Source: a virus. Taken from it: 64,000 nt of DNA. Location of the stretch: positions 9,970 to 73,969 of IMG/VR virus record IMGVR_UViG_3300029194_000183. One strand, 5' to 3'. The translations under genes were made by a program, and so were the position numbers. This document shows positions 1,513 to 33,048 of the stretch, piece by piece. Position 1 is the stretch's first letter. Each line of letters begins with the position of its first letter. A model generated the notes under the pieces. It was not told the origin of the DNA. It saw nothing but the letters and a program-made list of their open reading frames with translations, and made no database searches.

Positions 1513-2250
1513 TTATAGATTTTGCTGTTGTCCGGGCATACCCGTAAGCATTCCAACCGAGACAAAACCATCCATTTGCCTCAGCTCAGACTCTTGGCGA
1601 TGCTGCTCAACAGGCATGCCAAATGTACCCGCGATGTCATCTGGGTAGTAACCCTTCCGAGGATTCACAGGCTGTTCTTCCGTATTCTCTTCGGCCACTG
1701 TCGTAGGTTGTTGATCAGCAGACTGCTTCTTTTTACACTCGTGGAACACCTCGGCCGCCACAAGGTCAAACACATAGAGCGCTTCGCCCTCGAACTCGAT
1801 GCGGTATCCGAGGATCTTATACCGGCAGTCACCGGACCAATCCATTTCCTTATAAAGCAATTCTGAAAATAACCTGCAGGACATTTTCCGACTCTTACGC
1901 TTGTCCGGTTTTGCGATACACCAGCGCAGAGCATCCCTGTCATTTTCATTACAGCCTTTAACTACAAGCCGCTTTAAGTCGCTGTTAAACATGATGTTGA
2001 CGTACACCACATCCTCCAAACCTGCAATGCAGGCCGTGTTGAATGTGATGCTGTCTTTCCTTATTATAATGGCGGGATCTCGAAGATGTGCAAAAAGTTC
2101 CCTCCGGGCGACCTGATAGCCATCATAATCAAAGGTCTGCTCGATCTCCGTTCTCCTCTGTTCCCGCTCCGACATCTGCTCCGCACTCAGTTCCAACGCC
2201 TGCGGATTCTCCATCTCCATTGTCTGCTGATTCGCCATCTCCATGTTCAT
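1513..2250 (-). CDS. Hypothetical protein homologous to the C-terminal extension of the adjacent large serine recombinase; start uncertain
   Basis: SITFNTACIAGLEDVVYVNIMFNSDLKRLVVKGC...RWCIAKP...MDWSGDCRYKILGYRIEFEGEALYVFDL matches LSFNTACLKKFENVEYVELLLNSVNRCIAVRPC...HWGKL...MDWDQDLKYRFRGDFIENDDQKVMLFQLD of the 653-aa recombinase. The ORF overlaps the recombinase 3' end, so the true start is probably an internal Met. Confidence 0.45.
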   Translation of the reverse strand: MNMEMANQQTMEMENPQALELSAEQMSEREQRRTEIEQTFDYDGYQVARRELFAHLRDPAIIIRKDSITFNTACIAGLEDVVYVNIMFNSDLKRLVVKGCNENDRDALRWCIAKPDKRKSRKMSCRLFSELLYKEMDWSGDCRYKILGYRIEFEGEALYVFDLVAAEVFHECKKKQSADQQPTTVAEENTEEQPVNPRKGYYPDDIAGTFGMPVEQHRQESELRQMDGFVSVGMLTGMPGQQQNL

Positions 2251-4090
2251 CTGGTATAGGCCACCCTTCTATTATTTTCTCTGCTTCATGTAAAAGTTCT
2301 TCAAGGTCTTCTGAGGTCAATGTACTGTATTCGGCCAGTTCCTTTGCCGGCCGCAAAACATCCCAGTCAGCCGCATAGTGCCTCTGCTCCAGTAGATTAA
2401 TCTCTCCGATGCTGGTAATCGGTCTTCCAAATGTGTCCTCCCATTCCGGAGGCAAAATGTAAATAATCTGCTTAACTGTCCTCCCTGCGATTTCAGCTCG
2501 GTCATCTGTTTCAGCTTCTTTGGGCGGAAGAACGATGTTCTCCGTCTTTACCATTTCAGGTTCGTCCAGTTGAAACAGCATAACCTTTTGGTCATCATTC
2601 TCGATAAAGTCACCACGGAAACGGTATTTCAGGTCCTGATCCCAATCCATAATGTCAAACAGCGTTTTCGCCAGTCCACGGCACGACTTGGACAGCGCAC
2701 ACCACCGCCCTTCGCGCAGCTTTCCCCAGTGAATTGCATTTGGATTGTTCCCATCACACGGTCGAACAGCAATACACCTGTTCACTGAATTCAACAGCAG
2801 CTCTACATACTCCACATTCTCAAATTTTTTGAGGCAGGCCGTATTAAAGCTCAGTTTTCCATCTGCTATTGTCATCGCAGGGTTTTGCGTAGTAGAGAAA
2901 TACTGAGACCGAACCACCTCATAGCCACGCATGTCTAATCCTGCTTTATATTCAATCTGCCGCGTGTCCTCCAACTCGCTCATAACACTTTCAGATGCCT
3001 TTTGATATTCATCCGTTGAGAATCCGGTCCAGTCTTTATCCAGTGGTACATATCCTCGAAGGATTCCATTGTCAACAACGCTTAGTACAGGCAAGGGCCT
3101 AGCTTTCTTCGCATAGGCACGTGATGCCCGAAGAAAATTTGCTGCTTCATATACAGTTCGAGAAACTATGGCTTCATGATGATTTTTTCTTCTAAACTGC
3201 GTTCTTTCACCATTGTTCTTTTTGGCTTTGTGTGTCAAAAAATTAGGGGTAAATGTCTTCCACGCCCTAATGTCACCACAATGACGTTCATTTGCAACAA
3301 TCTCGGCCAGTGTGCTTGCGCTCCACTCATAACTTCCCTGCTTTGTCTTGCGTTTATAGGCTTTAAGCAATTCTGCAATATCAGAAAATGAAACACCATT
3401 CAAGTAAAGATAGTAGATTGCTTTTACAGTTTCAGCTTCGTCCTCATTGACGATAAGGTCACCATCTTCGTCCCGGTCATAGCCAAGCAGCTCTGGTGTT
3501 AAAAACAGTCCCTTCCTAAACCGGCGTTCAATCGACCAGTTCATAATGACCGATTTTGAATGGGATTCTTCTTCAGCAACCGAGGCCAAAATCGTCAAGA
3601 TCATTCGTCCATTATTGTCAAGCGTATAAATGTTGTCTGCTTCAAACTGAACACCTACAGGCGGTTCAAGGTTTTTCAGAAGGTCAATAACAGAAAGGCA
3701 ATCAACGATGTTTCTTGCAAATCGAGCAATCGACTTGGTCATGATCAAATCTATTTTCCCGGCTTTACAATCCTCAATCATCTGGAGCATGCCTTTTCGG
3801 TGTGCAATAGATGTTCCGCTTATACCTTCATCTGCATAGATTCCAACAAGTTCCCATCCAGGATGTCCTGTAATGTACTCAGCATAATAATTCTTTTGAA
3901 GTTCATAAGAAGATGTCTGTTCGTCATTATCCGTTGAGACCCGAACATAGGCCGCCACACGGCGAATTCCACCGCTCTCCATAAAATCCGCAGTAGGCTT
4001 TGCAGGGATTATTTCGATTTCAGACGCATCCGTGCCTTTATATTTATCACGGATTTTCTGCTTACGGTCTTGTCCACTGTTTTCTTTCAC
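2129..4090 (-). CDS. Large serine recombinase (resolvase catalytic domain, recombinase domain, Zn-ribbon, C-terminal extension)
   Basis: RRVAAYVRVSTDNDEQTSSYELQ...KSIARFARN...ESHSKS motifs. 653 aa. Confidence 0.9.
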   Translation of the reverse strand: MKENSGQDRKQKIRDKYKGTDASEIEIIPAKPTADFMESGGIRRVAAYVRVSTDNDEQTSSYELQKNYYAEYITGHPGWELVGIYADEGISGTSIAHRKGMLQMIEDCKAGKIDLIMTKSIARFARNIVDCLSVIDLLKNLEPPVGVQFEADNIYTLDNNGRMILTILASVAEEESHSKSVIMNWSIERRFRKGLFLTPELLGYDRDEDGDLIVNEDEAETVKAIYYLYLNGVSFSDIAELLKAYKRKTKQGSYEWSASTLAEIVANERHCGDIRAWKTFTPNFLTHKAKKNNGERTQFRRKNHHEAIVSRTVYEAANFLRASRAYAKKARPLPVLSVVDNGILRGYVPLDKDWTGFSTDEYQKASESVMSELEDTRQIEYKAGLDMRGYEVVRSQYFSTTQNPAMTIADGKLSFNTACLKKFENVEYVELLLNSVNRCIAVRPCDGNNPNAIHWGKLREGRWCALSKSCRGLAKTLFDIMDWDQDLKYRFRGDFIENDDQKVMLFQLDEPEMVKTENIVLPPKEAETDDRAEIAGRTVKQIIYILPPEWEDTFGRPITSIGEINLLEQRHYAADWDVLRPAKELAEYSTLTSEDLEELLHEAEKIIEGWPIPDEHGDGESADNGDGESAGVGTECGADVGAGTEENGDRADL

Positions 4091-6206: not shown

Positions 6207-6277
6207 AGGCCCACCGGGTCACCATCTTCTTTTGCTTATTCGCAAAGCTAGAAAGTGACCCGGTGGGCTGTATCAGT
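6207..6277 (-). terminator. Stem-loop ggcccaccgggtcac ... gtgacccggtgggcc followed by a T-run on the minus strand
   Basis: Roughly 15-bp inverted repeat arms; the minus strand reads ...gtgggcctttttgttttgg. Located just downstream of recombinase gene 6273–7487. Confidence 0.45.
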
Positions 6278-7487
6278 TTTTCTCAACTTCAATATGGTCT
6301 GGATATACCAGTACCTTCGATACTTCCTTTTCAAACCGTTCCTGATCCATGTTCAGCCACTCAAGTTCTCGCAGGATTGCATCGATAAGTTCTTCTTCCT
6401 TAATAAAGCGGTTGCCGCATCGCTCATTGCCTTTTCCTTTTTGCCGGTTTCGGCAGTTCCACGCTTTATAGGTGCTTTGCGTCTTGAAACCGCCAGCAGC
6501 TTTCAAAGTCCGGCGCAAAAAGGGAGTACCACATTCTCCACAGAATACTTTGCCGTAGAGGAAGTGATGCTCCCTGTTCGTTTTATGAATACCGACCTTT
6601 GCCAGTTCTTTTCGTTTTTCCAGAATTTCCTGTGCCTTATCCCATGTCTCCCGATCTATGATTGCTTCATGGTCATCCCACAGATAATTGGATTCCACCT
6701 TCTGATTCGGATTGGGCTTCTTGGTCAGGTAGTCCAACGGAGCTTTCTTCTGCAACCGCTTGTCACCCACATAGGTTTCATTTGAAACCATGTACCGGAG
6801 AGTTTCTACTCCAAACCCCTTTTTACTGTGCAACGATTGAGCCCCCAGCTCTTCCAAACCTTTAGCGATTTGCCTATAGCTCTCGCCTTCGATGAATCTG
6901 CGGAATACTTCCTTTACAATCCAAGCGTCCTTGTTGGGAACCAGCTCGCCATCCACACAGTCGTAGCCGAGAATACGATTATTGCCGAGATTGTACTCAC
7001 CTCGTGCAAATCGGCTTGCATAAGCAGCCTTTTCATTTTCACTGATAGAATGACTTTCATCCTGTGCCACTGCTGCCAAGATGGATAGGACGAAATCACA
7101 GGTTGGATCATCTGTGCGGATATTTTGTTCCTCAAAAATGATTGTAACCCCCAGCGTTCTAAACCATTTGGCATACTGCTGGCAATCCACCATGTTCCGA
7201 GAAAACCGGGAAATACTCTTGCAAATGATAATATCCAGCTTCTTGGCTTCGGCGGCCGCCGCCATTTCCTGAAAGCCCGGTCGATTTTTCACTCGTGTAG
7301 CAGAATGCCGGTCAGCATATACCTTAACCAGTTCCCAGTCGGGATGACTTTGGATCAGCTCCTCGTAATACTTCTGCTGAGTTTCAAAGCTTTCATCCTG
7401 CTCGTTGCGAAAAGTGCTGACACGGCAATACGCGGCCACACGTTTCTTTGCCACTGGGATTTTTGGCATTACCTTTTTAATAATCAT
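6273..7487 (-). CDS. Serine recombinase (third gene of the tandem triplet)
   Basis: KKRVAAYCRVSTFRNEQDESFETQ...KSISRFSRN...DESHSIS plus a C-terminal Cys-rich Zn-ribbon (CGECGTPF...CRNRQ). Confidence 0.9.
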   Translation of the reverse strand: MIIKKVMPKIPVAKKRVAAYCRVSTFRNEQDESFETQQKYYEELIQSHPDWELVKVYADRHSATRVKNRPGFQEMAAAAEAKKLDIIICKSISRFSRNMVDCQQYAKWFRTLGVTIIFEEQNIRTDDPTCDFVLSILAAVAQDESHSISENEKAAYASRFARGEYNLGNNRILGYDCVDGELVPNKDAWIVKEVFRRFIEGESYRQIAKGLEELGAQSLHSKKGFGVETLRYMVSNETYVGDKRLQKKAPLDYLTKKPNPNQKVESNYLWDDHEAIIDRETWDKAQEILEKRKELAKVGIHKTNREHHFLYGKVFCGECGTPFLRRTLKAAGGFKTQSTYKAWNCRNRQKGKGNERCGNRFIKEEELIDAILRELEWLNMDQERFEKEVSKVLVYPDHIEVEKN

Positions 7488-8988
7488 TTGCTGCTACTCC
7501 ATTCTCCTTGGCACGGAGGTTCTTTGCCGTCTGCATGGCAGCATTACGCTGTGCCTCCCGCGTATTCACTGACTTCTTATCAGCCCGCACCACGCTCACC
7601 GGCTTGTTCTCGCTCCGCTGCGCACGGTCCAGCGAGTTCCGATAAAGCTCTGCCACATGGGTCGGTTCCTCAACCTTGGATGCATTCAAAGCAACCTCGC
7701 TCTCCAGACCACATTTCCAGAACACCCGCATGGTGTCCTGTTTAAATTCAATGTGCCCCACCAAGTCATCCAGCCAGTAATACTGGACGGTGTCCAGTTT
7801 CGGGCTCTCTGCCTTGATTTCCAGCATCCTCTGCATAGCTACCGTCCGCTTCTTTTCCTTGATTTCAAGGGTGTTGTAGGCTTCCAGCAGGGCAGCATCC
7901 ACAAGATACCCTTTGACCGCATACCCACGGCAGCCGTCCACATCAAAGCAGCCAAGGATGCGCTTGTGGCTGTTCACTTTCATGACCCTCGGAATCATCT
8001 TCTTCCCACACAGCGGGCAGACAATGTTTGTATCGAAGTAGGGATACCGGCTGTACTCCCCATGCGGAGATTTCAGTTCCATAATGCGCTGTACCTGCTG
8101 GTAGGTATGGCGGTCGATAATAGGAACATGGTGGTTCCTGACGTTGTAGACCGGAATCACAGTCGAGTCGTTCCGGACACTCCTATGGGAAATATGGTCA
8201 ACACTGACCCATTTCTGAAGCCGCATATCACCAATGTACTTCTCGTTCTCAAGGAGATACTTAAGGGCGGTCTTGTTCCACGTCTGCTTGCCCCTTGCGG
8301 AAGGAGCCTGTATAAAGGTCAGCTCATCCAGAATGTCCGTCATGGGGATGCCGTACTGGTACATTTTGAAAATCATCCGCACAATGGCAGCTTCGTCCGG
8401 TTCAATGACAATTTCACCGTCCTTGGTCTTCCGATAGCCATAGGTCTTGGTCCAGCGCGACTCACCACTTTCAAACCGCTTGCGAATGCCCCATTTCAGG
8501 TTTTCGGAGATGGAACGGCTTTCCTCCTGTGCAAAAGCCGCCATGACCGTCAGAATCAGTTCGGACACCGACGTTGCCGTATCCAGTCCTTCCTTTTCAA
8601 AGTAAAGCTGGACACCGATGCTCTGAAGATGGCGCACATAGGACAGACATTCGACCGTGTTGCGGGCAAATCGAGAGATACTTTTTGCCATGATATAATC
8701 GACCTTGCCTGCCTCGCAATCCTCCATCATCCGCAAGAACTCTTTACGCTTTTTCACGCTGGTTCCGCTGATGCCCTCATCGGCGTAGACATCCACCAGC
8801 ATCCAGCCAGGGTGCTGGGCAATCTTAGCGCGGAAGGCTTTCATCTGCTCCTCCAAGCTGTGGAGCTGAATCTCCTGGTCCGTGCTGACACGGGCATAGA
8901 CTGCAACGCGGACTGTTTTCAAGGTGCTAAGTGCCTGAAAGCCAAGCTTCTGTACCCCAGTGTCTACCTTTTCTACTGTAATTTCCAT
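7477..8988 (-). CDS. Serine recombinase (second gene of the tandem triplet)
   Basis: VRVAVYARVSTDQEIQLHSLEEQ...KSISRFARN...ESRSIS plus Zn-ribbon CPLCGKK...GCFDVDGC. The stop overlaps the start of 6273–7487. Confidence 0.9.
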   Translation of the reverse strand: MEITVEKVDTGVQKLGFQALSTLKTVRVAVYARVSTDQEIQLHSLEEQMKAFRAKIAQHPGWMLVDVYADEGISGTSVKKRKEFLRMMEDCEAGKVDYIMAKSISRFARNTVECLSYVRHLQSIGVQLYFEKEGLDTATSVSELILTVMAAFAQEESRSISENLKWGIRKRFESGESRWTKTYGYRKTKDGEIVIEPDEAAIVRMIFKMYQYGIPMTDILDELTFIQAPSARGKQTWNKTALKYLLENEKYIGDMRLQKWVSVDHISHRSVRNDSTVIPVYNVRNHHVPIIDRHTYQQVQRIMELKSPHGEYSRYPYFDTNIVCPLCGKKMIPRVMKVNSHKRILGCFDVDGCRGYAVKGYLVDAALLEAYNTLEIKEKKRTVAMQRMLEIKAESPKLDTVQYYWLDDLVGHIEFKQDTMRVFWKCGLESEVALNASKVEEPTHVAELYRNSLDRAQRSENKPVSVVRADKKSVNTREAQRNAAMQTAKNLRAKENGVAANDY

Positions 8989-9942: not shown

Positions 9943-10084
9943 TGCGTCATCCTCCTTGGGGTAGTCGTATAATGCCGCATGTATGGCTGAATAGCAAGTT
10001 CTGTCGCCCAGATAAATCGGCATATTACCGACAAACTATCTGCCTGACAGAACGCCTGAATTGCAGCATATATGACAAATGTAA

Positions 10085-10184: not shown

Positions 10185-11666
10185 TTAGACCTTCTTGACG
10201 TAATCGAGGCTGATCCAGCCGTTACGCTTGCCGGCAAAGGACTTCAGCAATCCCCACTTGGATGCACCCTTACCTGTTGCCTCCGCAACAATGGTGAACA
10301 CACCCTTGCCAGTAAAACCACGGAAGCCATAGTTCGTGCCGGGGCCTTTGCGGATGCGCAGGTCAGAGATAGACACCCGGACCGTGTAGGGCTGAAATGC
10401 CGTGCTGGTGGGATAGACCGCCTTGCCGTTCTCATCGAACACCGAGTAGCCGGGATTCTTGTCAGCACACGCCTTGGCGTTGCTCAGGTCACGGAAAGCT
10501 CCCTTCTGAGATGCAGTATCCGACCAGTTCTTGCGCACACGGTACAGGGTCGCGGCGGGTGTGACAGGCGTAACAGATGCTGCCACATCGAACTGGGTCA
10601 GGTTCCACTGCTCAATGACCCGGCAGAGGTTCTGCATATAGTCAAGGCTCGTCGCATAACCGCCATCCTTGATGATCTGCACCGCTTTCTTATAGTCCGT
10701 GCAGCCTGCCAGTCCCTCGTACCGCTTCTTGCTGCCGTTCATGGCACCCAGCAAATAAGCGGAGTGATCTGCAATGGAGTCCTCAATGGAGCCGTACTTG
10801 CGGAAGTCGGCCGTGACGGTCACATAGCTGCCATCCGTGTTCTGCTCTCCGGTCTGCATGGTGTAGACGGAATGCCCATCCCACGCAGAGCCAGCCCAGC
10901 TGTTCCCCGACAGCGAGGATTTCATGCCAAAGCAGTTATTGGCATTCTGTGCCAGCTCGGACTTGCCGTAGCCGGATTCCAGAATGAACTGCGCCATGGA
11001 CACGCTGGCAAGGATGCCGGACTGCTTCTGGTTTGCGGTAAACAGCGTGGCCACCTTTGTCACAACCTCTGCGGACTCCATATCCTTCAAAGAAGCTGCC
11101 TGCAAGCCAGTGGACGCAACAGGAGTGCCCAGTGCCGCCGTTACCTTGGCCGCCAGATCACTGAGGCGGCTGTACAGCCAGTCGCCGGGGCAGGCTTTGT
11201 TCGCATACCAGCGGTGGACGGTCAGAACCATCTCATCCGATGCCGGCGCATAGTTCAGCGTCTTGTTCTTGTCCCCCAGCCAGAGCAGCTTGGTCTTACC
11301 GTTCCGCTTGCAGATGTCGGTACAGAGCTTGATAAGCGAAGTGTAGACGGCACTGTTCATGGCGTATGGGTGGGTCAGGTCACTGGCGCACTCGATAGTG
11401 ATAGCCCGCTGATCGTTTGCTGCACTGGAAGAGCACCAGCTCCGGTTCTTTTCTTCGACACAGAGCGACACACGGCCGTCCTTGCCGATGCCGTAGTTAC
11501 AACTTGCCTGACGACTCGGGCTGATGAAGCAGCCACAGATACTTTCCGCAGACAACTGCCCCACCACACAGTGCGGGGTGATGCGGTCGATGCTGTGTGT
11601 CCGCTGCCCAGAATGGTTCGGGCTGAGGTTCGTATAAACCACTAAGGGACTGTTAGTGTATGCCAT
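10185..11666 (-). CDS. Endolysin: N-acetylmuramoyl-L-alanine amidase (Amidase_2/PGRP-like) + glucosaminidase + SH3b cell-wall-binding repeats
   Basis: N-terminus IDRITPHCVVG...NYGIGKDGRV...ITIECA...HRWY..CPG. Middle FILESGYGKSELAQNANNCFGMK is the glucosaminidase signature. The C-terminus carries two SH3b-like repeats (YRVRKNWSD... and YTVRVSISDLRIRKGPGTNY). Confidence 0.85.
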   Translation of the reverse strand: MAYTNSPLVVYTNLSPNHSGQRTHSIDRITPHCVVGQLSAESICGCFISPSRQASCNYGIGKDGRVSLCVEEKNRSWCSSSAANDQRAITIECASDLTHPYAMNSAVYTSLIKLCTDICKRNGKTKLLWLGDKNKTLNYAPASDEMVLTVHRWYANKACPGDWLYSRLSDLAAKVTAALGTPVASTGLQAASLKDMESAEVVTKVATLFTANQKQSGILASVSMAQFILESGYGKSELAQNANNCFGMKSSLSGNSWAGSAWDGHSVYTMQTGEQNTDGSYVTVTADFRKYGSIEDSIADHSAYLLGAMNGSKKRYEGLAGCTDYKKAVQIIKDGGYATSLDYMQNLCRVIEQWNLTQFDVAASVTPVTPAATLYRVRKNWSDTASQKGAFRDLSNAKACADKNPGYSVFDENGKAVYPTSTAFQPYTVRVSISDLRIRKGPGTNYGFRGFTGKGVFTIVAEATGKGASKWGLLKSFAGKRNGWISLDYVKKV

Positions 11667-24302: not shown

Positions 24303-27300
24303 TTACTTGTAGACCGAATCGTCCTGGTCGATCATCTCATTGATCTTGTCAGCCACGATCTGTGCCAGTTCGTTATCGTTCCGGGCGTTGTAGCCGTTCA
24401 CTGTGATGTGAACGCCACCCAGATTCGTGTTCTTTGTCGTTCCGCCGCCGGCCAGAGCAGCCTGCGGAAGATTCCAACCGCTTGTGTTCAGCCGGGGAAT
24501 ATTGATCTCCGGCAGGCTGAAGGAGCAGATTCCCGCCATCCCCTGCTGAACCTTAGAGGCCATAGACCGGATCTGCTTCAGCAGACCGCCCTCGCTGGCC
24601 TTGATGCCGCCAGTCAGCAGCTTCATGAAGTCAGGCATATAGGTGTCGGCATCTGCCAGCGGTCCTTCGTCCGGCACCGAGAAGTGCAGGAAACTGCGGA
24701 TGCCGTTTGCCACGCTCTTGGCGGCATTGCCGACCCACGACACGCCTTTCTTGATGCCTCCAGCGATACCGCTGACCACATCCTTGCCCCAGTTCACCGC
24801 CGAGGAAGCCACGTTCTTGACGCCGCTCCAGATGGAGGATGCCACGTTGCCGATGGCAGACGCCGCATTGGAGATGCCATTCTTAATGGCAGTCACACCA
24901 TTGGAGAACACAGAAGTGACCTTATTCCAGATGTTGGTCACGCCCTCCCGGAAACCATCGCAGTTCTTCCAGAGAGCGGCCAGCCCAAGGCCGACACCGC
25001 CGACTGCGGCCACCGCAATACCAGCAGGGCCAGCAAGACCAGCCAGTGCTGTACCTGCCGAGGCAAGCACACCGCCAGCCGAAGAAGCGATACCAGCCAA
25101 TGCACTGCCTGCACCGGCTGCAAGACCAGACACCGTTGTGCCAACAGAACCGAACAGCCCCGCAATCGCAGAACCGGCCGAGCCAGCGATACCGCCCAGC
25201 GTAGAGCCTACGCCGGAGAGTAACCCAGACAGGCTGCTGCCGACACCGCCGAGTTTGGAGAGGACACCGGTCGCTACACTGCCAAGGTTCGACAAGATGC
25301 CGGTTCCGCTGCTGCCAAGGCTGCCCAGCCTCGAGATAACACCGGTGATTCCTTGTCCCAGACCACCCATCTTGGAGGTCAGCCCGGAGATCAGGTTTCC
25401 GAAGTTTGAGACGATCTGCCCGCCATCGGCGTTTCCAATCTTCGACAGGAAACTCCCCACCTTTGTCAGCAGACCACCGCCGCCATCCGTTCCCAGTGCA
25501 TTGCCGAGGTTCGTGAGCGTCTCGCCCAAGCTGCCGAAGGTACTCTTCATGGAGCCGAGCTTGTCCACGATTCCGGTGACAGTGCTGACCGTATCACCCA
25601 CCTTGCTGATGCCCTCGCCCAGTCCTTTCAGAAAATCCGAGTTGAAGGTGTCACCGAGGCTGCGGATCGCGTTGCCCAGAGAACTGGTCTGGTCGCTCAA
25701 GTCTCCGATGGAGGTCTTCATGTCGGAGAAGCCCTGCTTCACTTCATCGCTCATGCTGCTGACCGATGTTTTGGTGATCTTTTCAAGGTCACTCCAGACA
25801 GACTTAAACTCGCTGGACATGCCTTCCAGACCGTTCATGAGCCCAGTTCGGATGCCGGATGCCAGTCCGCTTGCAGCAGACCGTACTCTGTTGGTGCTGC
25901 CAGTGATCGTTGAAGCAAATCCGCTCACCACAGACCTCACCTTATCGCCCATGTCTCCCACGGGCGTGTTCAGGTTGGTTTTCATGGAGCCGGACAGGGT
26001 CTTGACTGCCTTGACGACCTTGCCTTGATTCTTCTTGATACCACTCGCCAGCAGCTTCATGAAGTCCGGCATATACTCGTCCGCATCAGACAGAGGGCCA
26101 GTGTCAGGCACAGAGAAATGCAGCAGACTTCTGACCTTACTTGCCACATTCTCTGCAGCCCGGACGACCGAGCCAGCCGCCGCACGAACACCGGCCGCCA
26201 TCTGGGAGCAGATGTCACTGCCCCAGCTGTATGCCGAAGAAGCAATGGAGCTGAGAGAGTTAAAGCTGCTCTTGATGCCGGACACACCGGAAGAAACCGT
26301 GGAGCGCAGGTTCGACATTGCGCCGGACACCGCCGACTGCACGCCGGAGAAAGTAGAGCTGGTCGTGGACTTGACTCCGTTCCAGCCCGTGGATACCGTG
26401 GACTTCACAGAGTTCACAGCCGAAGTTGCCGTATTACGGATAGTATTCCAACTGGAACTGAGGACCGACTGGATGCTCGACCAACTGCTGCCGGTCAGGC
26501 TGCGGAGGTTGTTCCATCCCGCCGTGACGGAACTTTTGACCGCATTGACTGAGCTGGTGGTTGCACTCTTGATGCTGTTCCAGCTCGTATTCAGCACGGT
26601 CTGGATGGAATTCCAACTGGACGTTGTCAAACTTCGCAGATTCGTCCACCCGGTCGTGACGGAAGTTTTCACTGCGTTGACCGATGCTGTTGTCGCACTC
26701 TTGATGCTGTTCCAGCTCGTGTTCAGTGCCGTTTGGATGGAACTCCAACTGGATGTTGTCAACGTGCGCAGGTTTGTCCATCCATTGGTAACGGAAGTCT
26801 TCACTGCGTTCACGGCTGTGGTGCTTGCCGTTTTAATGGAATTCCAGCTTGCCGTCAGGCTCGACTGGATGCTGGACCAGCTGGATACCGTCAGGGAACG
26901 AAGCTGTGTCCAGCCGTTCGTCACTGCGGTCTTCACACTGTTCAGGCTGGTTGTCACGGAAGTCGTAATTCCGGTCCATGCCGTAGTGAGGTTGGTCTTG
27001 ACCGCATTCCATGCCGTAGTGGTATCCGAAGCGATGCCGGACCACGCTGCCGACATGGATGCCTTGATGCTATCGATCTGGGTCGTCACAGACTGTGCCA
27101 TGCCAGTACAGGCAGTCGATACGGAGGTAGACACACCCGACCATGCGGTCTGGGCTTCCGCCTCCACACCGGACCATGCGTTAGAGGTATCCGTTTTCAT
27201 CTGGGTGGTAGAGTCACTGGTCTTGCCGGTGATGGCATCCCAGATACCACCAAAGAATCCGGAGATTCCTTCCCATGCGCTGGAGATGCCGGACTTGATA

Positions 27301-30128
27301 CCCTCCCACGCAGTGCTTGCCGTAGACTGGATGCCTTCCCATGCCCCAGACAGCCCGGTGGCCACCGTTTCTACCGCCGAGGTCACGCCGAACTGGATAC
27401 CGTCCCAAGCTGTAGAGATCGCACCCTTGATGCCATCCCACGCAGATGAGGCAGTTGTCTGGATGCCCGTCCATGCAGTCGAAAGCCCAGAGCCGAGCGT
27501 CTCAACCGCGCTGGACACAAAGGAGGAGATTCCCTCCCACGCGCCGGAAATAACACCCGAAATGCCCTCCCACACAGTCGATGCCGCCGACTTGATGTTC
27601 TCCCAGGCTGTAGACCAGTCGCCGGAGATCACGCTCATGACCGTCGAGATGACGGCCGAGATTGCATCCATAACCCCGCTGACCACGCCGGAGATTGCCT
27701 CCCAGACCGTAGAGAATACCGTCTGCAAGCCGGTCAGGATACCGCCAAGGAAATCCGAGATTCCGGTGAATGTCGACTGTGCGTTCTCGTCCATCTCACC
27801 GGTTTTACCCGTGAAGAACGAGACGATGCCGTTCCAGATACCCTCGAAGAAATCCTTGATCCCCGTCCAAACGCCCGTGAAAAATGCCGAGATTCCATTC
27901 CAGACGGTAGATGCTGTGGTCTGGATGCCCGTCAGGATGCCGGAGAAGAAATCGCTGATTCCTGTCCAGATCCCCTCAAAGAAGCCCTTGACGCTTTCCC
28001 AAACGGTGTTCCAGTCCGTACCGAACCAGCCGAGGAACACATCTGCTACACCCTTCAAGGTGTTCAGCACCGTAGAGAAGATAGACTTGATGCCGTTCCA
28101 GATGCCGGAGAAAATGCCCTTGACTGCCTCCCATGCGCCGCTCCAGTTGCCCTGGAACAGGTTGGAGAAAACATCGAACAGACCAATAAGGGTATCGAGG
28201 ACCGTTCCCAGTACAGTGGACACGACCTGAAAGGCACCCTCGAACACAGGAGCCAACACCTGACAGAATCCATCCCAGACTGCTTTCAGCACCTCGACGA
28301 TATCCTTGAAGTCAAAGCCGAGGGCATTGAGCCGCTGGGTCAGTTGGTCGCAGAAGCCGCGCACCTTTTCGACGATTCCGTTCCAGATGTTGGTGATGGC
28401 GGTGCGGAACTCCTCATTGGTGTTCCAGAGGTGCATGAAGGCAGCGACCAGCGTACCGATGACGGCTACGACCGCCATAACCGGCGCCGAGACCCCACCG
28501 AGTGCTGCGCCCAGCTTCCCGAACAGTCCGGTTGCACCGCCCACCCGGGTGGAGAGCAGTCGGATGCCCTTTGCCAGCGAACTGAATCCTCGCAGAGCCG
28601 TACCAACTGTCGATATGGTCTTTCCCAGTACAATGAGCAGCGGACCGATGGCCGCAGCCAGAGCCGCCACCTTGAGGATGGTTTCTCTGGTGCTGTCATC
28701 CATGCTGTTGAGCTTGTCCACGAATGCCTGCACCGCCGACACGATCTTGCGGATGGTGGGCATCAGGAGGTCGCCAAAAGAAATAGCCAGCTCTTCCAAC
28801 TGAGATTTCAGAATGGTGAGCTGACCATTTAAGTTGTCCTGCATGGTTTCTGCCATGCTCTCCGCAGAACCGTCACAGTTCTCGATGGCACCACGGAGCT
28901 TGTCGATGTCACCTTCGCCGGCATTCATCAGGGCAAGGAAACCGGACATGGCGTTCTTGCCGACCAGCGATTCGGCATTGGCTGCCTTTTCGGATTCGGT
29001 CAGACCGGAGAAAGCCACACGGCAGTCCGCAAGGATATCGTTCAGGCTTCTCATGCTGCCATCTGCGTTGCTGGTAGCAATGGTGACCTCGCCGATGTTT
29101 TTGCCCGCAAAGGTCACTTCGCCAGCAAGGTTGTTCATGATGGATCGCAGCGAAGTACCTGCCTGTGATGCCTTGATACCGCTGTTTGCCATGAGGCCGA
29201 TGGCTTCTGCGGTGTCCTCTGCGCTGAAACCCAGCGCACCGGCGATAGGCGCACAGTACTTGAAGGTCTCGCCCATCATGCTGACGTTGGTGTTTGCATT
29301 GGACGATGCCGCCGCAAGGATGTCCGCAAAGTGACCGGAATCCGCAGCCGACAGACCAAAGGCGGTCAAGGCATCCGTGACAATATCCGAGGTGGTCGCC
29401 AAGTCCTCACCGGATGCAGCAGCAAGGTTCATGATGCCCTCGATACCATCCAGCATATCCCCGGTCTTCCAGCCGGCCATCGCCATGTATTCCATAGCGG
29501 AGGCGGCTTCGGAGGCAGAGAACTTGGTCTTGGCACCCATCTCGCGGGCTTTTTCACGCAGGGAATCAAAGTCAGAGCCAGTCGCGCCGGAAATAGCAGC
29601 GACCTTGCTCATCTCTTGGTCGAAGTCCGCTGCGGTCTTCACCGCCGCAGTTCCTAAACCAGTGACCGCTGCTGTGACAGGTAAGAATTTCTTGCCCGTC
29701 TCCTCGACCTGAGAACCAACCGTCTGGAGTTTCTCACCCACTGCATCGATCTTGGCAAGGGTCACATTGGTGACCGCTGCCTGTTCCTGCAGGGATTTGA
29801 GGTTCTGCTCAGTTTCCACGATCTCACGCTGGAGCGCATCGTATTGCTCCTGTGTGATCTTACCGTCTGCAAGCTGCTGGTTGGCCTGCTCCGCCGCCGT
29901 CTTTAAGGTGGTGAGCTTCTCCTTAGTGGCTTCGATGGCATCCTTCAGCATCCGCTGCTTCTGGGTGACCGCCTCGGTGTTGGAGGGGTCCAGTTTCAGG
30001 AGCTTGTTGACATCCTTCAGCTCAGACTGCGTTGTTTTGATGGTTTTATTGACGCTTTCCAGTGCCTTGGAAAGTTTTGTAGTATCGCCGCCGATCTCAA
30101 CGGTAATGCCTGCGATTCTGGATGCCAT
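24303..30128 (-). CDS. Tail tape measure protein (TP901-family N-terminal region; about 1941 aa from the internal Met)
   Basis: AAISGATGSDFDSLREKAREMGAKTKFSASEAASAMEYMAMAGW...FADILAAASSNANTNVSMMGETFKYCAPIAGALG is the tape measure signature. Extensive W-rich and S/T-rich repeats. The probable start is MASRIAGITVE at 30128, after an alternate-codon ORF start at 30176. Confidence 0.9.
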   Translation of the reverse strand: MASRIAGITVEIGGDTTKLSKALESVNKTIKTTQSELKDVNKLLKLDPSNTEAVTQKQRMLKDAIEATKEKLTTLKTAAEQANQQLADGKITQEQYDALQREIVETEQNLKSLQEQAAVTNVTLAKIDAVGEKLQTVGSQVEETGKKFLPVTAAVTGLGTAAVKTAADFDQEMSKVAAISGATGSDFDSLREKAREMGAKTKFSASEAASAMEYMAMAGWKTGDMLDGIEGIMNLAAASGEDLATTSDIVTDALTAFGLSAADSGHFADILAAASSNANTNVSMMGETFKYCAPIAGALGFSAEDTAEAIGLMANSGIKASQAGTSLRSIMNNLAGEVTFAGKNIGEVTIATSNADGSMRSLNDILADCRVAFSGLTESEKAANAESLVGKNAMSGFLALMNAGEGDIDKLRGAIENCDGSAESMAETMQDNLNGQLTILKSQLEELAISFGDLLMPTIRKIVSAVQAFVDKLNSMDDSTRETILKVAALAAAIGPLLIVLGKTISTVGTALRGFSSLAKGIRLLSTRVGGATGLFGKLGAALGGVSAPVMAVVAVIGTLVAAFMHLWNTNEEFRTAITNIWNGIVEKVRGFCDQLTQRLNALGFDFKDIVEVLKAVWDGFCQVLAPVFEGAFQVVSTVLGTVLDTLIGLFDVFSNLFQGNWSGAWEAVKGIFSGIWNGIKSIFSTVLNTLKGVADVFLGWFGTDWNTVWESVKGFFEGIWTGISDFFSGILTGIQTTASTVWNGISAFFTGVWTGIKDFFEGIWNGIVSFFTGKTGEMDENAQSTFTGISDFLGGILTGLQTVFSTVWEAISGVVSGVMDAISAVISTVMSVISGDWSTAWENIKSAASTVWEGISGVISGAWEGISSFVSSAVETLGSGLSTAWTGIQTTASSAWDGIKGAISTAWDGIQFGVTSAVETVATGLSGAWEGIQSTASTAWEGIKSGISSAWEGISGFFGGIWDAITGKTSDSTTQMKTDTSNAWSGVEAEAQTAWSGVSTSVSTACTGMAQSVTTQIDSIKASMSAAWSGIASDTTTAWNAVKTNLTTAWTGITTSVTTSLNSVKTAVTNGWTQLRSLTVSSWSSIQSSLTASWNSIKTASTTAVNAVKTSVTNGWTNLRTLTTSSWSSIQTALNTSWNSIKSATTASVNAVKTSVTTGWTNLRSLTTSSWNSIQTVLNTSWNSIKSATTSSVNAVKSSVTAGWNNLRSLTGSSWSSIQSVLSSSWNTIRNTATSAVNSVKSTVSTGWNGVKSTTSSTFSGVQSAVSGAMSNLRSTVSSGVSGIKSSFNSLSSIASSAYSWGSDICSQMAAGVRAAAGSVVRAAENVASKVRSLLHFSVPDTGPLSDADEYMPDFMKLLASGIKKNQGKVVKAVKTLSGSMKTNLNTPVGDMGDKVRSVVSGFASTITGSTNRVRSAASGLASGIRTGLMNGLEGMSSEFKSVWSDLEKITKTSVSSMSDEVKQGFSDMKTSIGDLSDQTSSLGNAIRSLGDTFNSDFLKGLGEGISKVGDTVSTVTGIVDKLGSMKSTFGSLGETLTNLGNALGTDGGGGLLTKVGSFLSKIGNADGGQIVSNFGNLISGLTSKMGGLGQGITGVISRLGSLGSSGTGILSNLGSVATGVLSKLGGVGSSLSGLLSGVGSTLGGIAGSAGSAIAGLFGSVGTTVSGLAAGAGSALAGIASSAGGVLASAGTALAGLAGPAGIAVAAVGGVGLGLAALWKNCDGFREGVTNIWNKVTSVFSNGVTAIKNGISNAASAIGNVASSIWSGVKNVASSAVNWGKDVVSGIAGGIKKGVSWVGNAAKSVANGIRSFLHFSVPDEGPLADADTYMPDFMKLLTGGIKASEGGLLKQIRSMASKVQQGMAGICSFSLPEINIPRLNTSGWNLPQAALAGGGTTKNTNLGGVHITVNGYNARNDNELAQIVADKINEMIDQDDSVYK
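26446..26962. repeat. 132-nt (44-aa) tandem repeats (about 4.5 copies) inside the tape measure gene
   Basis: The protein repeats SWSSIQ..L..SWNSIK.A.T.AVNAVKTSVT.GWTNLR.LT.S. The repeats are also visible as reiterated peptides in the overlapping spurious ORFs 26035–28230(+) and 26434–26781(-). Confidence 0.6.
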
Positions 30129-30243
30129 GCGGATAACCACCTCCTCCGGGGCAAAAGTAAAGGCCCATCCGCGCAAGGCGAATAGGCCGAAATTGGGTAT
30201 AAAAATACCCCGTCAGATTTCTCCAACGGGGTACTCGATTAAT

Positions 30244-30570
30244 TTACTTTTCTGGAAAAAGGATACTCATATAGTCTCTGCCACCGTAAATTACACGGTC
30301 AACATAAACTATGTCATTCGGTTTCAAACGGTAAAATGCAAGATAGTTTTTGAAAACAACATAGCGATAGCCGCTGTTGAGTCCATTTTCAAATTCCAAT
30401 TTTGATCCAGACTCAGGAAAGGAAGCGATTCCGTCCACCCGATCCATAATACCATCTACAGTATTCTGAGCAGCACTTGGGTTACAGAGTTCGACTTCGA
30501 TATAATCCCATATCTCGTCAAGGTCTTTTAATGCTCTCGGAGAATACTCTATTTTACTTTGCATTTGCAC
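30244..30570 (-). CDS. RelE/ParE-family type II toxin
   Basis: YSPRALKDLDEIWDYI...GSKLEFENGLNSGYRYVVFKNYLAFYRLKPNDIVYVDRVIYGGRDY has the ParE/RelE fold pattern. 108 aa; overlaps the antitoxin by 17 nt. Confidence 0.7.
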   Translation of the reverse strand: MQMQSKIEYSPRALKDLDEIWDYIEVELCNPSAAQNTVDGIMDRVDGIASFPESGSKLEFENGLNSGYRYVVFKNYLAFYRLKPNDIVYVDRVIYGGRDYMSILFPEK

Positions 30571-30847
30571 GGGCCCTGAAGTGATTTCTTACATCTTCCG
30601 AAGAAATCCATCCTTCTTCCTCTCCTGATCGTCTGCCCTCAGCCAACTCGCACATCAGGCGAAGCTGTGCATTCATCCGATCATACTTCTCTGCCTTTTC
30701 TCTCTGTTCTTCCTGCTCATCAATGTTCATGACTGTATAGCAGCCACGTCCGTTTTTCGTCAGGTATAAAGGCTTTCCAACCTGAACCGTTTCGAGAACA
30801 GTCGCATAGTTTCTCAAATCAGAGATTGGTTTGATGTTAGGCATAAT
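30554..30847 (-). CDS. Phd/YefM-family antitoxin
   Basis: MPNIKPISDLRNYATVLETVQVGKPLYLTKNGRGCYTVMNIDEQEE is the Phd/YefM signature. It lies upstream of and overlaps the toxin. Confidence 0.7.
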   Translation of the reverse strand: MMPNIKPISDLRNYATVLETVQVGKPLYLTKNGRGCYTVMNIDEQEEQREKAEKYDRMNAQLRLMCELAEGRRSGEEEGWISSEDVRNHFRARANAK

Positions 30848-30938
30848 AAAGCCCCCTTTCTCGGTTCCTATCTTTATTATACCTCCTGTCAGTGTCAAAT
30901 TCAACACCTAATTTGGTGCTAAATTTTACAATTCCGTC

Positions 30939-31130
30939 TTAGAAAACATCCATATCATGTTGCGATGCCAGCTCTCGATACGGATACTCATCGTTCTGCC
31001 GCTCTGTGAACATATCATTGACCAACCCGATGGTCAGCAAGTCGAGGTCGGCTATGCTGATACCGAGCTGAACACAGCGCAGCATGAAGAGCGGGGTGGT
31101 CATTACCCGCTCACTTTTGCGAGGTTTTTT
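30939..31130 (-). CDS. -1 frame extension giving a gpGT-like chaperone fusion (translated only after frameshifting from 31103–31480)
   Basis: ORF 30939–31226 is in the -1 frame. Past the slip site it reads KKPRKSERVMTTPLFMLRCVQLGIS... This matches the conserved G/GT arrangement of siphovirus tail chaperones. Confidence 0.5.
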   Translation of the reverse strand, partial: KKPRKSERVMTTPLFMLRCVQLGISIADLDLLTIGLVNDMFTERQNDEYPYRELASQHDMDVF

Positions 31131-31480
31131 CTTGCCTCTACCTCCGTCTGGACATTCAGACCCCACAGTTCGATCAGCTGAGGCAGAATCTGGTAGATAG
31201 AGAAGGTATTGAAGTTTTCCAGCCACTCATCCGGGGTGTCCGGCACCTGGTCCGGATGGGCGTGCTTCGCCATAATATAGGCGATATTCTCGAACATCTC
31301 CAGACTAAACAGGTCAAGGCTGGAGCTTTCCTCATCGTTATCCCCCACGCTCTTTTCCAGAGAACGCAGGTCTTTGTAGATATCCCGGCCGAACTTAATG
31401 CGATACAGCCTCGGCACGGCTGCGCTGGCGCGGAAATCAACCTGCTGTCCATCGATCTCGATTTTCTTCGTAATAGCCAT
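31103..31480 (-). CDS. Tail assembly chaperone (gpG-like)
   Basis: Placed between the major tail protein and the tape measure. Its 3' end carries the slippery heptamer A_AAA_AAC and overlaps a -1 frame ORF. Confidence 0.6.
   Translation of the reverse strand: MAITKKIEIDGQQVDFRASAAVPRLYRIKFGRDIYKDLRSLEKSVGDNDEESSSLDLFSLEMFENIAYIMAKHAHPDQVPDTPDEWLENFNTFSIYQILPQLIELWGLNVQTEVEARKNLAKVSG
31124..31130 (-). promoter_or_regulatory. Programmed -1 ribosomal frameshift slippery site A_AAA_AAC
   Basis: The minus strand reads ...gag gca AGA AAA AAC ctc gca aaa gtg agc ggg taa. The X_XXY_YYZ heptamer lies 8 codons before the gpG stop. Confidence 0.55.
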
Positions 31481-31546
31481 AAGTCAAATCCTCCATTTCA
31501 TGTAGAAAGGGCAGAGCCTCCGCCCTGCCCTCAGTTCGTGTCGCGC

Positions 31547-32380
31547 TTACTCTGCCGGGTCGATACTGACCAGTGCATTGCTGCCGCTGACGGTGGGCAG
31601 CTTGCCATCCCATTTCTGGATCTTCTGGTACTCGATCAGAGGTTCCGACAGGCTCTCTGCAATCTTGCGGTTCGCTTCGGCCTGTGCATCCGCAGCAATG
31701 GAAGTCTTCTGTGCCTCTGCCTCGGCGTTGGTGATCGCCACTTGCTTGTCGGCTTCTGCCTTTGCAATGGCGGCCTCGTTCTCGATTTTCTGCTTGTCAG
31801 CGTTCTGCTGGGCAATGGACTTCTGCTGGATGGCAGTGTTGTATGCCTCTTCAAAATCCATGTTGTTGATGACCACCTTATTGATGAACACAGCACCCTC
31901 GCCATACTTCTGGTTCAGGGACTCTGCCAGCTTCTGCTGGGCCAGAGGCTCGATCTTTGTGCGGTTGGTCACTTCATTGGGGCCAAGCTCGGCCATGGCG
32001 GACTTGATGGCAGATGCCACCAACTCGTCACCAACCAGATTCTTGGTGTCAGACACATTTGCGTACAACCATGCGCTCCTTTCGGGAAGCACCTGATAGG
32101 TCACGATCACATCTGCGGCATACACAGGAGTCTTGTCGGAGGCTTCGCCCCAGATCTGTGCCTCGATGTGCTTGTCCTGCTGCTTGTTGGACACGGTATG
32201 GATGCTCTGGACAAACGGAATGGTGAAGTTGAGCTTGCCGCTCTGGATGGTGGCCTCCTGAATCTGGCCGAAGCTGGTCTTCACGCCCGTGTAGCCGGTT
32301 GGGACGATGGTCACCGACTGGAACAGCAGGAAGGCCACGAAGATGACAGTGAACAGGGAAAATACACGATGCTTTTTCAT
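31547..32380 (-). CDS. SPFH/band-7 (stomatin/prohibitin/HflK-C-like) membrane protein; moron inside the tail module
   Basis: N-terminal TM helix (VFSLFTVIFVAFLLF), then the SPFH core TGYTGVKTSFGQIQEATIQSGKLNFTIPFVQSIHTVSNKQQD, then an Ala/Glu/Lys coiled-coil tail. Confidence 0.75.
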   Translation of the reverse strand: MKKHRVFSLFTVIFVAFLLFQSVTIVPTGYTGVKTSFGQIQEATIQSGKLNFTIPFVQSIHTVSNKQQDKHIEAQIWGEASDKTPVYAADVIVTYQVLPERSAWLYANVSDTKNLVGDELVASAIKSAMAELGPNEVTNRTKIEPLAQQKLAESLNQKYGEGAVFINKVVINNMDFEEAYNTAIQQKSIAQQNADKQKIENEAAIAKAEADKQVAITNAEAEAQKTSIAADAQAEANRKIAESLSEPLIEYQKIQKWDGKLPTVSGSNALVSIDPAE

Positions 32381-32439
32381 ATTGAAAATCTCCTTACACA
32401 ATAATGTAGGAAGCAGAGCCGAAGCCCTGCCTCGGTTTA

Positions 32440-33048
32440 TCAGCCCTGAGGATCAGTCTCCTCAGTCACCACACTGGATGCCTCTGCCTGCGGCTCATAG
32501 ACCTTCTCGTACCACTTGTTGTAGACATCGTCGCTGGTGTTGGTGCCGGTCTTAGCCTTGACATAACCGTTTGCCAGCGGGGTCGCCTGCAGGGTCAGGG
32601 TGTCGGTCTTGACCTCCTTGCTGTCCTCGTTGGTGTCACCTTCGATGGACGGACGGCTCGCCACGCAGTTGTACATGACATGACGGATATGCCGCTGGTC
32701 GCCATCAAACTCAAACAGGAATGCGAAGTGCTCCAGCTCGGCATTGGCGTTTTCCGCCAGAACGCCGTTTCCATCCAGTTCCTCGTGCATAATGTCCGTG
32801 AGGAAGGACTCCGGAATCAGGGCGATTTCCAGATCACCCTCATAGCCGGAGTTGTTATTCACGACATAGTAGGCGATATTGTCCGCATAGAACGGCTCAA
32901 TATCACCATTGGCATCCAGGGACAGACTGACCGCACCGGGGATGCGTACCGGGGTATCGTAGGTGACGCCGCCGTCCTCGTCAAAGGTCGCCTTGGCGTA
33001 ATGGCAGTTTTTCAGGCCATACTTGACCTTGTTGCTTTTCTTGCCCAT
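32440..33048 (-). CDS. Major tail protein (phi13/TP901-1-like)
   Basis: N-terminus KVKYGLKNCHYAKATFDEDGGVTYDTPVRIPGAVSLSLDANGD, 202 aa, placed upstream of the chaperone genes. Confidence 0.75.
   Translation of the reverse strand: MGKKSNKVKYGLKNCHYAKATFDEDGGVTYDTPVRIPGAVSLSLDANGDIEPFYADNIAYYVVNNNSGYEGDLEIALIPESFLTDIMHEELDGNGVLAENANAELEHFAFLFEFDGDQRHIRHVMYNCVASRPSIEGDTNEDSKEVKTDTLTLQATPLANGYVKAKTGTNTSDDVYNKWYEKVYEPQAEASSVVTEETDPQG

Follow-up and report, generated by a model that had tools for sequence, protein, structure and literature searches.

A ParE-Phd type toxin-antitoxin cassette at a cargo-exchange junction in the tail operon of a gut Clostridia phage

In this study, we analyzed a stretch of 64,000 nucleotides (nt) of phage DNA (IMG/VR record IMGVR_UViG_3300029194_000183, positions 9,970 to 73,969; hereafter, the window) and focused on a predicted type II toxin-antitoxin (TA) pair that lies between the gene for the tail assembly chaperone and that for the tape measure protein. 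The phage is a temperate siphophage of gut Clostridia. We found that the pair is an insertion and not an ancestral part of the tail operon, and that the chaperone-tape measure junction is a hotspot of cargo exchange, at which the pair is one of many interchangeable alleles. We assign a probability of roughly 0.6 to the whole explanation developed below, namely that the pair forms a self-contained type II TA cassette, represents one allele of this hotspot and would be expressed in the lysogen.

Organization of the TA cassette

In this region of the window, every gene lies on the minus strand. The cassette, its contents and the adjoining backbone features are as follows.

~30192-30961: variable cassette of ~770 bp, GC ~0.43, delimited by BLASTN breakpoints and the GC profile
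30892-30926, minus strand: direct repeats AAATTTAGCAC (30916-30926) and GAATTTGACAC (30892-30902), which span the -35 box
30876-30904, minus strand: predicted cassette promoter, TTGAAT - 17 nt - TATAAT, sigma-70-like, 10/12 consensus positions
30554-30844, minus strand: antitoxin gene, 96 amino acids (aa), with a Phd/YefM-type N-terminal domain
30244-30564/30570, minus strand: toxin gene, 106 aa (ATG at 30564) or 108 aa (GTG at 30570), ParE branch by sequence and predicted fold
30199-30236, minus strand: predicted strong intrinsic terminator of the cassette, long stem ACCCCGUUGGA/UCUGACGGGGU followed by UUUUUAU, just 3' of the toxin stop
31103-31480, minus strand: open reading frame of tail assembly chaperone G, 125 aa, the backbone gene 5' of the cassette
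31130-31124, minus strand: canonical A AAA AAC slippery heptamer, in phase with the G frame (offset 350 = 2 mod 3), at which a -1 frameshift yields GT
30939-31130, minus strand: T part of GT in the -1 frame, stop at 30939-30941
30162-30188, minus strand: backbone hairpin with T-run, immediately 5' of the ribosome-binding site of the tape measure gene and outside the cassette
24303-30128, minus strand: tape measure gene, 1941 aa (ATG at 30128, end at 24303), the backbone gene 3' of the cassette

The original prediction, made from the sequence of this DNA, described a complete, overlapping antitoxin-then-toxin pair at this place. This was right within one codon, as its end at 30847 falls 3 nt past the start codon and its antitoxin length of 97 aa counts the stop. 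The antitoxin gene runs from an ATG at 30844 to a stop at 30554-30556, with a strong Shine-Dalgarno sequence (AAAGGGGG, 30852-30859) 7 nt 5' of the start. The co-directional toxin gene overlaps its end by 11 nt when read from the ATG, the 106-aa form taken by public gene calls, or by 17 nt when read from the GTG. On the 5' side, the modelled GT fusion product has 180 aa, and its last ~7 T codons (30942-30961) fall inside the variable cassette.

Insertion and cargo exchange at the junction

An IMG/VR search with the G protein returned 593 relatives, 80 of which were fetched and 63 of which had both flanks of the junction. The G protein was 80-100% identical across the 80 loci, and the first 300 aa of the tape measure protein were 87-100% identical among close relatives. 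The TA pair was present in just three of the 63 relatives, with 100% identity in L006 and ~89% toxin identity in L038 and L075. T and the tape measure gene were 80-3448 nt apart. The two neighbouring junctions were nearly constant in these loci, with 26-73 nt from the major tail protein gene to the SPFH gene and, in all but two loci, 64-71 nt from SPFH to G. The junction DNA sequences of the 63 relatives fell into 16 classes, whose cargo genes were identified by Pfam, PADLOC and PDB.

25/63 loci: DUF3990 + DUF3791 (PADLOC candidate system PDC-M13), opposite strand to the tail operon
16/63 loci: RelE-type toxin + Phd-like antitoxin, opposite strand
8/63 loci: AbiEi/AbiEii, same strand as the tail operon
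4/63 loci: AbiD/Abi_2, opposite strand
3/63 loci: ParE-Phd pair (L038 also has AbiEi; L075 also has AbiEi and a group II intron), same strand
2/63 loci: ATPase_2+DUF234 protein (PDC-S27), same strand
1/63 loci: Fic, opposite strand
1/63 loci: RelB-YoeB, opposite strand
1/63 loci: AbiEi + helix-turn-helix (HTH) protein + DUF6036 nucleotidyltransferase, same strand
2/63 loci: empty junction (76 and 175 bp)

The junction cargo in the clade of the window is strongly biased to TA, abortive infection (Abi) and defence genes, and the AbiE, AbiD, PDC-M13 and PDC-S27 cargos match PADLOC models. The boundaries of the insertion were placed by BLASTN comparisons with L009, L005, L017, L008, L004, L010 and L018, in which an identity of 92-98% halts at 30961, within T and ~22 nt before its 3' end, and returns at ~30190-30193; all classes break at the same two points relative to the window (30961 and ~30192). 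Because the backbones around different cargo are still 92-98% identical, the replacement must have been recent. GC content also drops, from 0.55-0.58 in the flanks to ~0.43 in the cassette (0.40-0.45 over the pair). The proposed insertion between the chaperone and tape measure genes was thereby borne out, and the alternative that all relatives carry the pair, which would have made it ancestral, does not apply. On the other hand, the view that a TA moron at this position is atypical did not hold, as the same junction houses gene 15 of phage HK97 and is routinely occupied and highly variable in this lineage.

With regard to how the cargo is exchanged, site-specific recombination at the cassette ends (integron- or attC-like) was considered and is not supported, as the sub-modules shared between classes differ and there is no recombinase gene within the junction. 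Between other pairs of classes, the shared sub-modules vary (the inverted repeat on the left, terminators, and AT-rich motifs close to promoters). The turnover of cassettes is explained most simply by mosaic homologous recombination in the conserved flanking tail genes.

Two additional features were observed in the junctions of relatives. One is an inverted repeat whose core (GTGCTTAT...ATAAGCAC) does not vary and whose outer stem covaries, located in the first ~45 nt past the T stop (L003, L004, L010, L018, L038, L040, L042, L043, L046, L073 and L075). In most cargo classes it marks the left edge, and the cassette of the window lacks it; in AbiE cassettes it occurs twice, and the second copy overlaps a TTGACT-17-TACAAT promoter. 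This repeat could be an operator of AbiEi, remaining as a remnant in the other classes, or a structure at mRNA 3' ends. The other feature is the group II intron of L075 (= L085), which occupies positions ~1700-3440 of the junction, encodes a reverse transcriptase of 429 aa (RVT_1 + GIIM) and lies 3' of the TA terminator hairpins and 5' of the tape measure gene. This position fits the targeting of terminator stem-loops that is known from certain group II introns of bacteria.

Junctions in a second clade and in annotated phages

Among annotated GenBank phages, those of the NatCom group come closest; they are classified as Ca. Heliusvirales and show 67-72% nucleotide identity. Among seven NatCom phages inspected, the junction was empty in three, held an HNH_2 protein in one and contained genes without known function in three. 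We also drew a second IMG/VR sample, with the G protein of Agathobacter phage NatCom_13861 as seed (451 matches, 80 fetched), and found 28 junction classes in 55 loci. Some of this cargo was defence-like (AbiE, AbiL, Mrr/type IV restriction, MazF, Mom and HSDR_N nuclease), and some was not, including methyltransferases, glyoxalase, alcohol dehydrogenase, TetR and membrane proteins. Given this mixture, the junction is a general cargo hotspot. No description of a chaperone-tape measure hotspot in gut Clostridia phages or Ca. Heliusvirales was found in the literature searched, the coverage of which was incomplete, so that this is an absence of evidence and no priority is claimed.

The toxin and the antitoxin

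The toxin matched the Pfam family ParE_toxin (PF05016) with E = 1.3e-16 and 61 bits (cut-off 23 bits). Its best sequence matches in PDB were the ParE structures 6x0a (E = 8e-9, ~33% identity) and 3kxe (1.4e-3), followed in third place by 7etr, which was deposited as a RelE/StbE-family toxin, and also by 8c24 and 6xrw (ParE). An AlphaFold2 model built on 29 homologues (predicted local distance difference test score, pLDDT, of 84) has two long helices and four beta-strands between a short strand at the N-terminus and a short helix at the C-terminus, in agreement with the RelE/ParE fold, in which two N-terminal helices pack on an antiparallel beta-sheet. When this model was compared with PDB by Foldseek, ranks 1-20 were all ParE-family toxins, with a probability of 1.0 to ParE structures, and included those of Mesorhizobium, M. 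tuberculosis, P. aeruginosa, Caulobacter and V. cholerae as well as PaaA2-ParE2, PrpT and PfiT; RelE structures entered the list at rank 21 with template modelling (TM) scores of 0.5-0.6. The ParE entries placed ahead of RelE by sequence and fold were 6x0a, 8c24, 5ceg, 6xrw, 3kxe, 5czf and 7r5a.

A weak match to the NCBIfam model TIGR02385 had raised the possibility of a RelE-type mRNA interferase, which was rejected on the basis of sequence, fold and catalytic residues. In a manual alignment with E. coli RelE on the shared SGYR motif, the catalytic residues of RelE (K52, K54, R61, R81 and Y87) correspond to F58, N60, R67, R96 and L102 of the toxin, and just the two arginines are kept. Unlike the toxin of the window, the class-0 toxin found at the same junction in relatives retains KIKLR...R...Y. 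Thus, what had been proposed as a toxin of the RelE/ParE superfamily is, judged by sequence and predicted fold, specifically a member of the ParE branch. Its target would be DNA gyrase, as family membership suggests.

The antitoxin was assigned to the Phd/YefM type, as had also been proposed, with moderate confidence. Its matches to Pfam PhdYeFM_antitox PF02604 (E = 6.4e-5, 23.1 bits) and to TIGR01552 phd_fam (E = 1.2e-3, 18.1 bits) fall under the respective cut-offs of 29.8 bits (gathering) and 20.8 bits, and many homologues at 60-90% identity carry a precomputed PF02604 annotation. A PDB search with the single sequence gave noise alone (beta-galactosidase, E ~1), but a family profile placed Phd (three entries) and YefM as the top four matches, in register and weak (E 0.2-0.6).

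Both genes are intact in all nine comparable loci and are under strong purifying selection, with ratios of non-synonymous to synonymous substitution rates (dN/dS) of 0.02-0.06 at dS of 0.4-1.4; for the toxin gene, dN/dS was 0.03-0.05. A difference between the two genes was also observed when L084-L091 were compared with the window. For the same locus pairs, the toxin gene had a dS of 1.2-1.4, about three times that of the antitoxin gene (0.4), and antitoxins were 98-99% identical where toxins were 87-89% identical. This gap suggests intra-operon recombination or different histories of the two genes.

Transcription signals of the cassette and the backbone

The predicted promoter lies 32 nt 5' of the antitoxin start codon. 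Its hexamers and spacing are kept 5' of orthologous antitoxin genes in both phage and non-phage contexts, down to 46% protein identity, and the least conserved copy (L094) retains just a recognisable -10. The direct repeats over the -35 box are a candidate operator for the antitoxin, and the motif (A/G)AATTT(A/G)NCAC occurs over the -35 box in 2-3 copies in L088, L089 and L090. A further element is a 12-nt inverted repeat (92% complementary), in which the -10 region (GGTATAATAAAG, 30872-30883) pairs with the antitoxin start-codon region (CTTTATTATGCC, 30840-30851). As DNA it could serve as a second operator. If transcribed by late read-through, it could mask the start codon of the antitoxin.

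On the 3' side, the hairpin of the predicted terminator is also present 3' of the pair in L084-L086 and L091, as well as 3' of the AbiE cassette in L043 and the ATPase cassette in L001, and the terminator travels with the cassette. With its own promoter and terminator, as judged by motif and conservation, the cassette looks like an autonomous unit. A permissive Rfam scan of 29500-32000 gave two chance matches alone (E 0.6-0.8) and no known RNA element.

The hairpin at 30162-30188 had also been considered as the cassette terminator. This was rejected because it is a backbone feature that is found in empty sites: it occurs with every cargo class and in empty junctions, at the same position in L001-L080. 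A 14-pair consensus structure, 11 pairs of which form this hairpin, has 7 pairs with compensatory changes. The predicted fold of RNA from 30129-30250, which covers both the cassette terminator and this hairpin, has an energy of -50.1 kcal/mol (z = -4.0). To arrive at the tape measure gene, which is essential, late transcription has to pass two terminator-like hairpins in a row (30236-30199 and 30188-30162), and no promoter-like site was found between these hairpins and the tape measure gene. Such an arrangement 5' of an essential structural gene raises a question about transcription of the late operon, and we hypothesize that processive antitermination carries late transcripts past both hairpins.

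Spread of the cassette

An identical toxin sequence occurs in 674 indexed blocks of public assemblies. In all six places shown for it, the gene order was major tail protein-SPFH-G-T-antitoxin-toxin-tape measure. Related cassettes (46-88% toxin identity) were found outside this context in genomes of Oribacterium, Lachnospiraceae, Eubacterium and further Clostridia, and a contig of Lawsonibacter asaccharolyticus (L092) is the nearest named genome with the pair beside a tape measure homologue.

Remnants of the phage flanks accompany several of these copies. In L085 and L087, the final 19-28 codons of T are found 5' of the pair, and no G or tape measure homologue was detected close to it in L087. 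In L086, the backbone hairpin and a tape measure fragment are found 3' of the pair, and in L091, on a Lachnospiraceae chromosome, the cassette terminator is followed by the first ~16 nt of the backbone flank. As judged from these remnants, the data indicate that the cassette moved out of a tail-operon site by recombination that took parts of the flanks along.

Proposed function and alternative explanations

In the lysogen, the cassette would be transcribed from its own promoter to its own terminator while the tape measure gene stays silent. The antitoxin dimer may bind the repeats at the -35 box, autoregulate the operon and neutralise ParE; if the supply of antitoxin drops, freed ParE could poison DNA gyrase and arrest the cell. 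Such a drop might be triggered when the prophage is lost, or when another phage infects the cell and shuts down host transcription or activates proteases. It had been proposed that the pair is co-expressed with the late structural genes. Late read-through is indeed also expected, and would come in addition to autonomous expression, but the conserved promoter and terminator of the cassette point to expression of its own, including in the lysogen.

As for the selective role, the most probable one, with odds that we regard as about even, is an abortive-infection-type protection of lysogens or competition between phages. This role is suggested because of the other cargo at the site (AbiE, AbiD, PDC-M13 and PDC-S27) and the precedent of HK97 gp15. 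What relatives carry at this site speaks for defence or competition, and it is also compatible with stabilisation of the prophage. Several points weigh against the explanation as a whole. No report of anti-phage activity of a ParE-Phd pair was found in the literature searched, and neither the toxin nor the antitoxin matches a PADLOC defence model at E <= 1e-3. The cassette has the same direction as the tail operon, and late read-through may be the relevant mode of expression. The antitoxin scores are under the curated Pfam and TIGRFAM cut-offs, the junction of the second clade also holds the non-defence cargo described above, and we infer toxicity, phage protection and the gyrase target by analogy.

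The main alternative, although a rather unlikely one, is an emphasis on addiction. In this case, stable ParE would outlive a labile antitoxin and cured cells would be killed or arrested, a benefit to the phage and not a defence of the host. ParESO/CopASO, a system of the ParE family, was reported to be essential for maintenance of the CP4So prophage and is a direct precedent, and the prophage TAs of E. coli O157:H7 are thought to stabilise their prophages (PMC12548467). SO_1444/SO_1445 (7etr) is among the weaker sequence and fold matches of the toxin, an autonomous promoter fits constitutive expression in the lysogen, and the window has three large serine recombinases, which indicate an integrated lifestyle. 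However, the alternative cargos include a single-gene AbiD and an ATPase that are incapable of addiction, and two close relatives and three GenBank phages have no cargo at all. As addiction is compatible with a role in defence, it competes with that role in emphasis only. We consider it less probable still that the cassette is a selfish passenger, hard to lose and spread by recombination with no net benefit, at a junction that is merely tolerant of insertions. The strong purifying selection on both genes, at dS up to ~1.4, speaks against such a passenger, as do the dominance of known or candidate anti-phage systems among the cargo in the clade of the window and the wide spread of the exact protein, which has the same context in all places shown. 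In its favour, the site accepts very heterogeneous cargo, including metabolic genes and genes without known function, the cassette is found in several unrelated contexts, some with flank scars, and TA systems are generally enriched on mobile elements (PMC12548467).

A counter-defence role, in which the phage antitoxin (from late read-through or from the prophage) neutralises a related chromosomal ParE used to abort infection, appears improbable. The chromosomal antitoxins of Lachnospiraceae and Oribacterium are 90-99% identical to the phage antitoxin and the toxins just 81-88%, and the cassette is co-oriented with the late operon, with no terminator between GT and the cassette. But the phage toxin is intact and under purifying selection, although a pure decoy would be expected to lose it, and the phage flank on the chromosomal copy L091 suggests a phage origin instead of a pre-existing host defence. 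The least probable alternative is a regulatory role, either on the phage's own production or, through the cassette terminator, on the tape measure gene. In Pf4, a filamentous prophage, the PfiT/PfiA pair reportedly regulates phage production, and PfiAT (9w3a) is among the top fold matches; two consecutive terminator-like hairpins also lie between the cassette and the tape measure start. However, the second hairpin is no property of the cassette, since it is found with every cargo and in empty sites, and the fact that unrelated cargo can take the place of the cassette speaks against its integration into regulation.

Beyond the self-contained, lysogen-expressed cassette that we prefer, a broader proposal can be put forward tentatively, although we lean somewhat against it. 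The GT-tape measure junction might be a dedicated cargo-exchange locus, bounded by the last T codons and the covarying hairpin, that shuffles dozens of TA, Abi, restriction and uncharacterized cassettes between phages and chromosomes. It would then be a defence island within a structural operon, and its ParE-Phd allele would protect lysogens by abortive infection. If this were true, new anti-phage systems of gut Firmicutes could be sought at the junction.

Relationship to known systems and significance

The first element to be called a moron, gene 15 of HK97, lies between the tail chaperone and tape measure genes, and its product, a small inner-membrane protein that blocks DNA entry, acts in superinfection exclusion; morons have a deviant GC content and their own promoter and terminator (PMC3594210). 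The cassette of the window resembles HK97 gene 15 in its chaperone-tape measure address, its deviant GC, its predicted promoter and terminator and its lack in related phages. Patchy presence, deviant base composition and what appear to be its own promoter and terminator agree with a moron in the sense of Juhala et al. 2000. Morons in this sense are also expressed from the repressed prophage, which would apply to the cassette. It differs from HK97 gene 15 in that the cargo is a two-gene ParE/Phd TA system and in that both the host phylum and the phage lineage are different.

Among TA systems, the pair is similar to ParDE of Mesorhizobium (6X0A/5CEG), M. tuberculosis (ParDE1, 8C24), P. aeruginosa (6XRW) and Caulobacter (ParDE1, 3KXE) in the sequence and fold of the toxin (TM 0.7-0.86) and in the small overlapping antitoxin-then-toxin operon, whereas its antitoxin has a predicted Phd/YefM-type N-terminal domain in place of the ribbon-helix-helix of ParD. 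Hybrid pairings of this kind are already known in the superfamily. The N-terminal domain family of the antitoxin is that of Phd-Doc (phage P1) and YefM-YoeB, in which the toxin partner is Doc or YoeB and not of the ParE type. P1 is a plasmid prophage, and addiction is the established role of its Phd-Doc system. ParE-family toxins on prophages are also known from ParESO/CopASO (Shewanella prophage CP4So) and PaaR2-PaaA2-ParE2 (E. coli O157:H7 prophages), and such prophage-borne ParE systems (7etr, 5czf and 5cw7) are among the fold matches of the toxin. Unlike the pair studied here, these have other antitoxin families, another location in the prophage and no reported cassette polymorphism at a tail junction. 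Prophage stabilisation is the role proposed for prophage-borne ParE systems (PMC12548467).

The defence hotspots of P2-like phages and P4-like satellites, as far as they are described in papers citing the original work (Rousset et al. 2022, cited in PMC11364771 and PMC10884400), also consist of a fixed site between conserved phage genes, with many alternative cassettes in near-identical genomes. The present junction appears to differ from those descriptions in lying inside the tail structural operon of Clostridia siphophages and in being dominated by TA and Abi cargo in one clade and mixed in the other.

The pair alone is one more prophage-borne ParE/Phd system in a very large family, and the hotspot is the more useful result. 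A single tail-operon junction holds at least 16 different cassettes in the first clade and 28 in the second, in phages related to one of the most prevalent phage orders of the human gut. Anti-phage systems, known or candidate, make up many of these cassettes, and in several no domain could be recognised. The junction therefore provides a cheap, position-based nomination of new defence or competition genes in gut Clostridia, where experimental defence screens are scarce.

Other features of the tail operon and the window

Additional genes of the window that were considered are listed below.

32440-33048, minus strand: major tail protein gene (TIGR01603, E = 2e-36)
31547-32401, minus strand: SPFH/Band-7 membrane-protein gene, between the major tail protein and G chaperone genes
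2129-4090, 6273-7487 and 7477-8988, minus strand: large serine recombinase genes (Resolvase + Recombinase domains) at the left window end

The SPFH gene is kept in nearly all close relatives, with a backbone-like GC content, and is missing in the more distant NatCom/Ca. Heliusvirales phages, in which G directly follows the major tail gene. It appears to have been inserted into the tail operon earlier and to have become fixed, and its product had no PADLOC match. In L031 and L032, the SPFH-to-G spacing is ~780 nt, i.e. an extra ~0.7 kb, and L078 has no SPFH gene; the SPFH-G region is a second variable point of the same tail operon, much more rarely altered than the chaperone-tape measure junction.

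The called length of the tape measure protein varies (1356, 1463 and 1941 aa) among contigs with an identical toxin (the window and L105-L110), and the protein of the window holds long internal repeats (...SWNSIK...VNAVKTSVT...GWTNLRSL... units). These repeats and length differences suggest a polymorphism of tail length through repeat gain and loss. Finally, the serine recombinase genes adjoin an AAA_25 ATPase and an endolysin (10185-11666), and three of them are an unusual number for a single prophage integration module.

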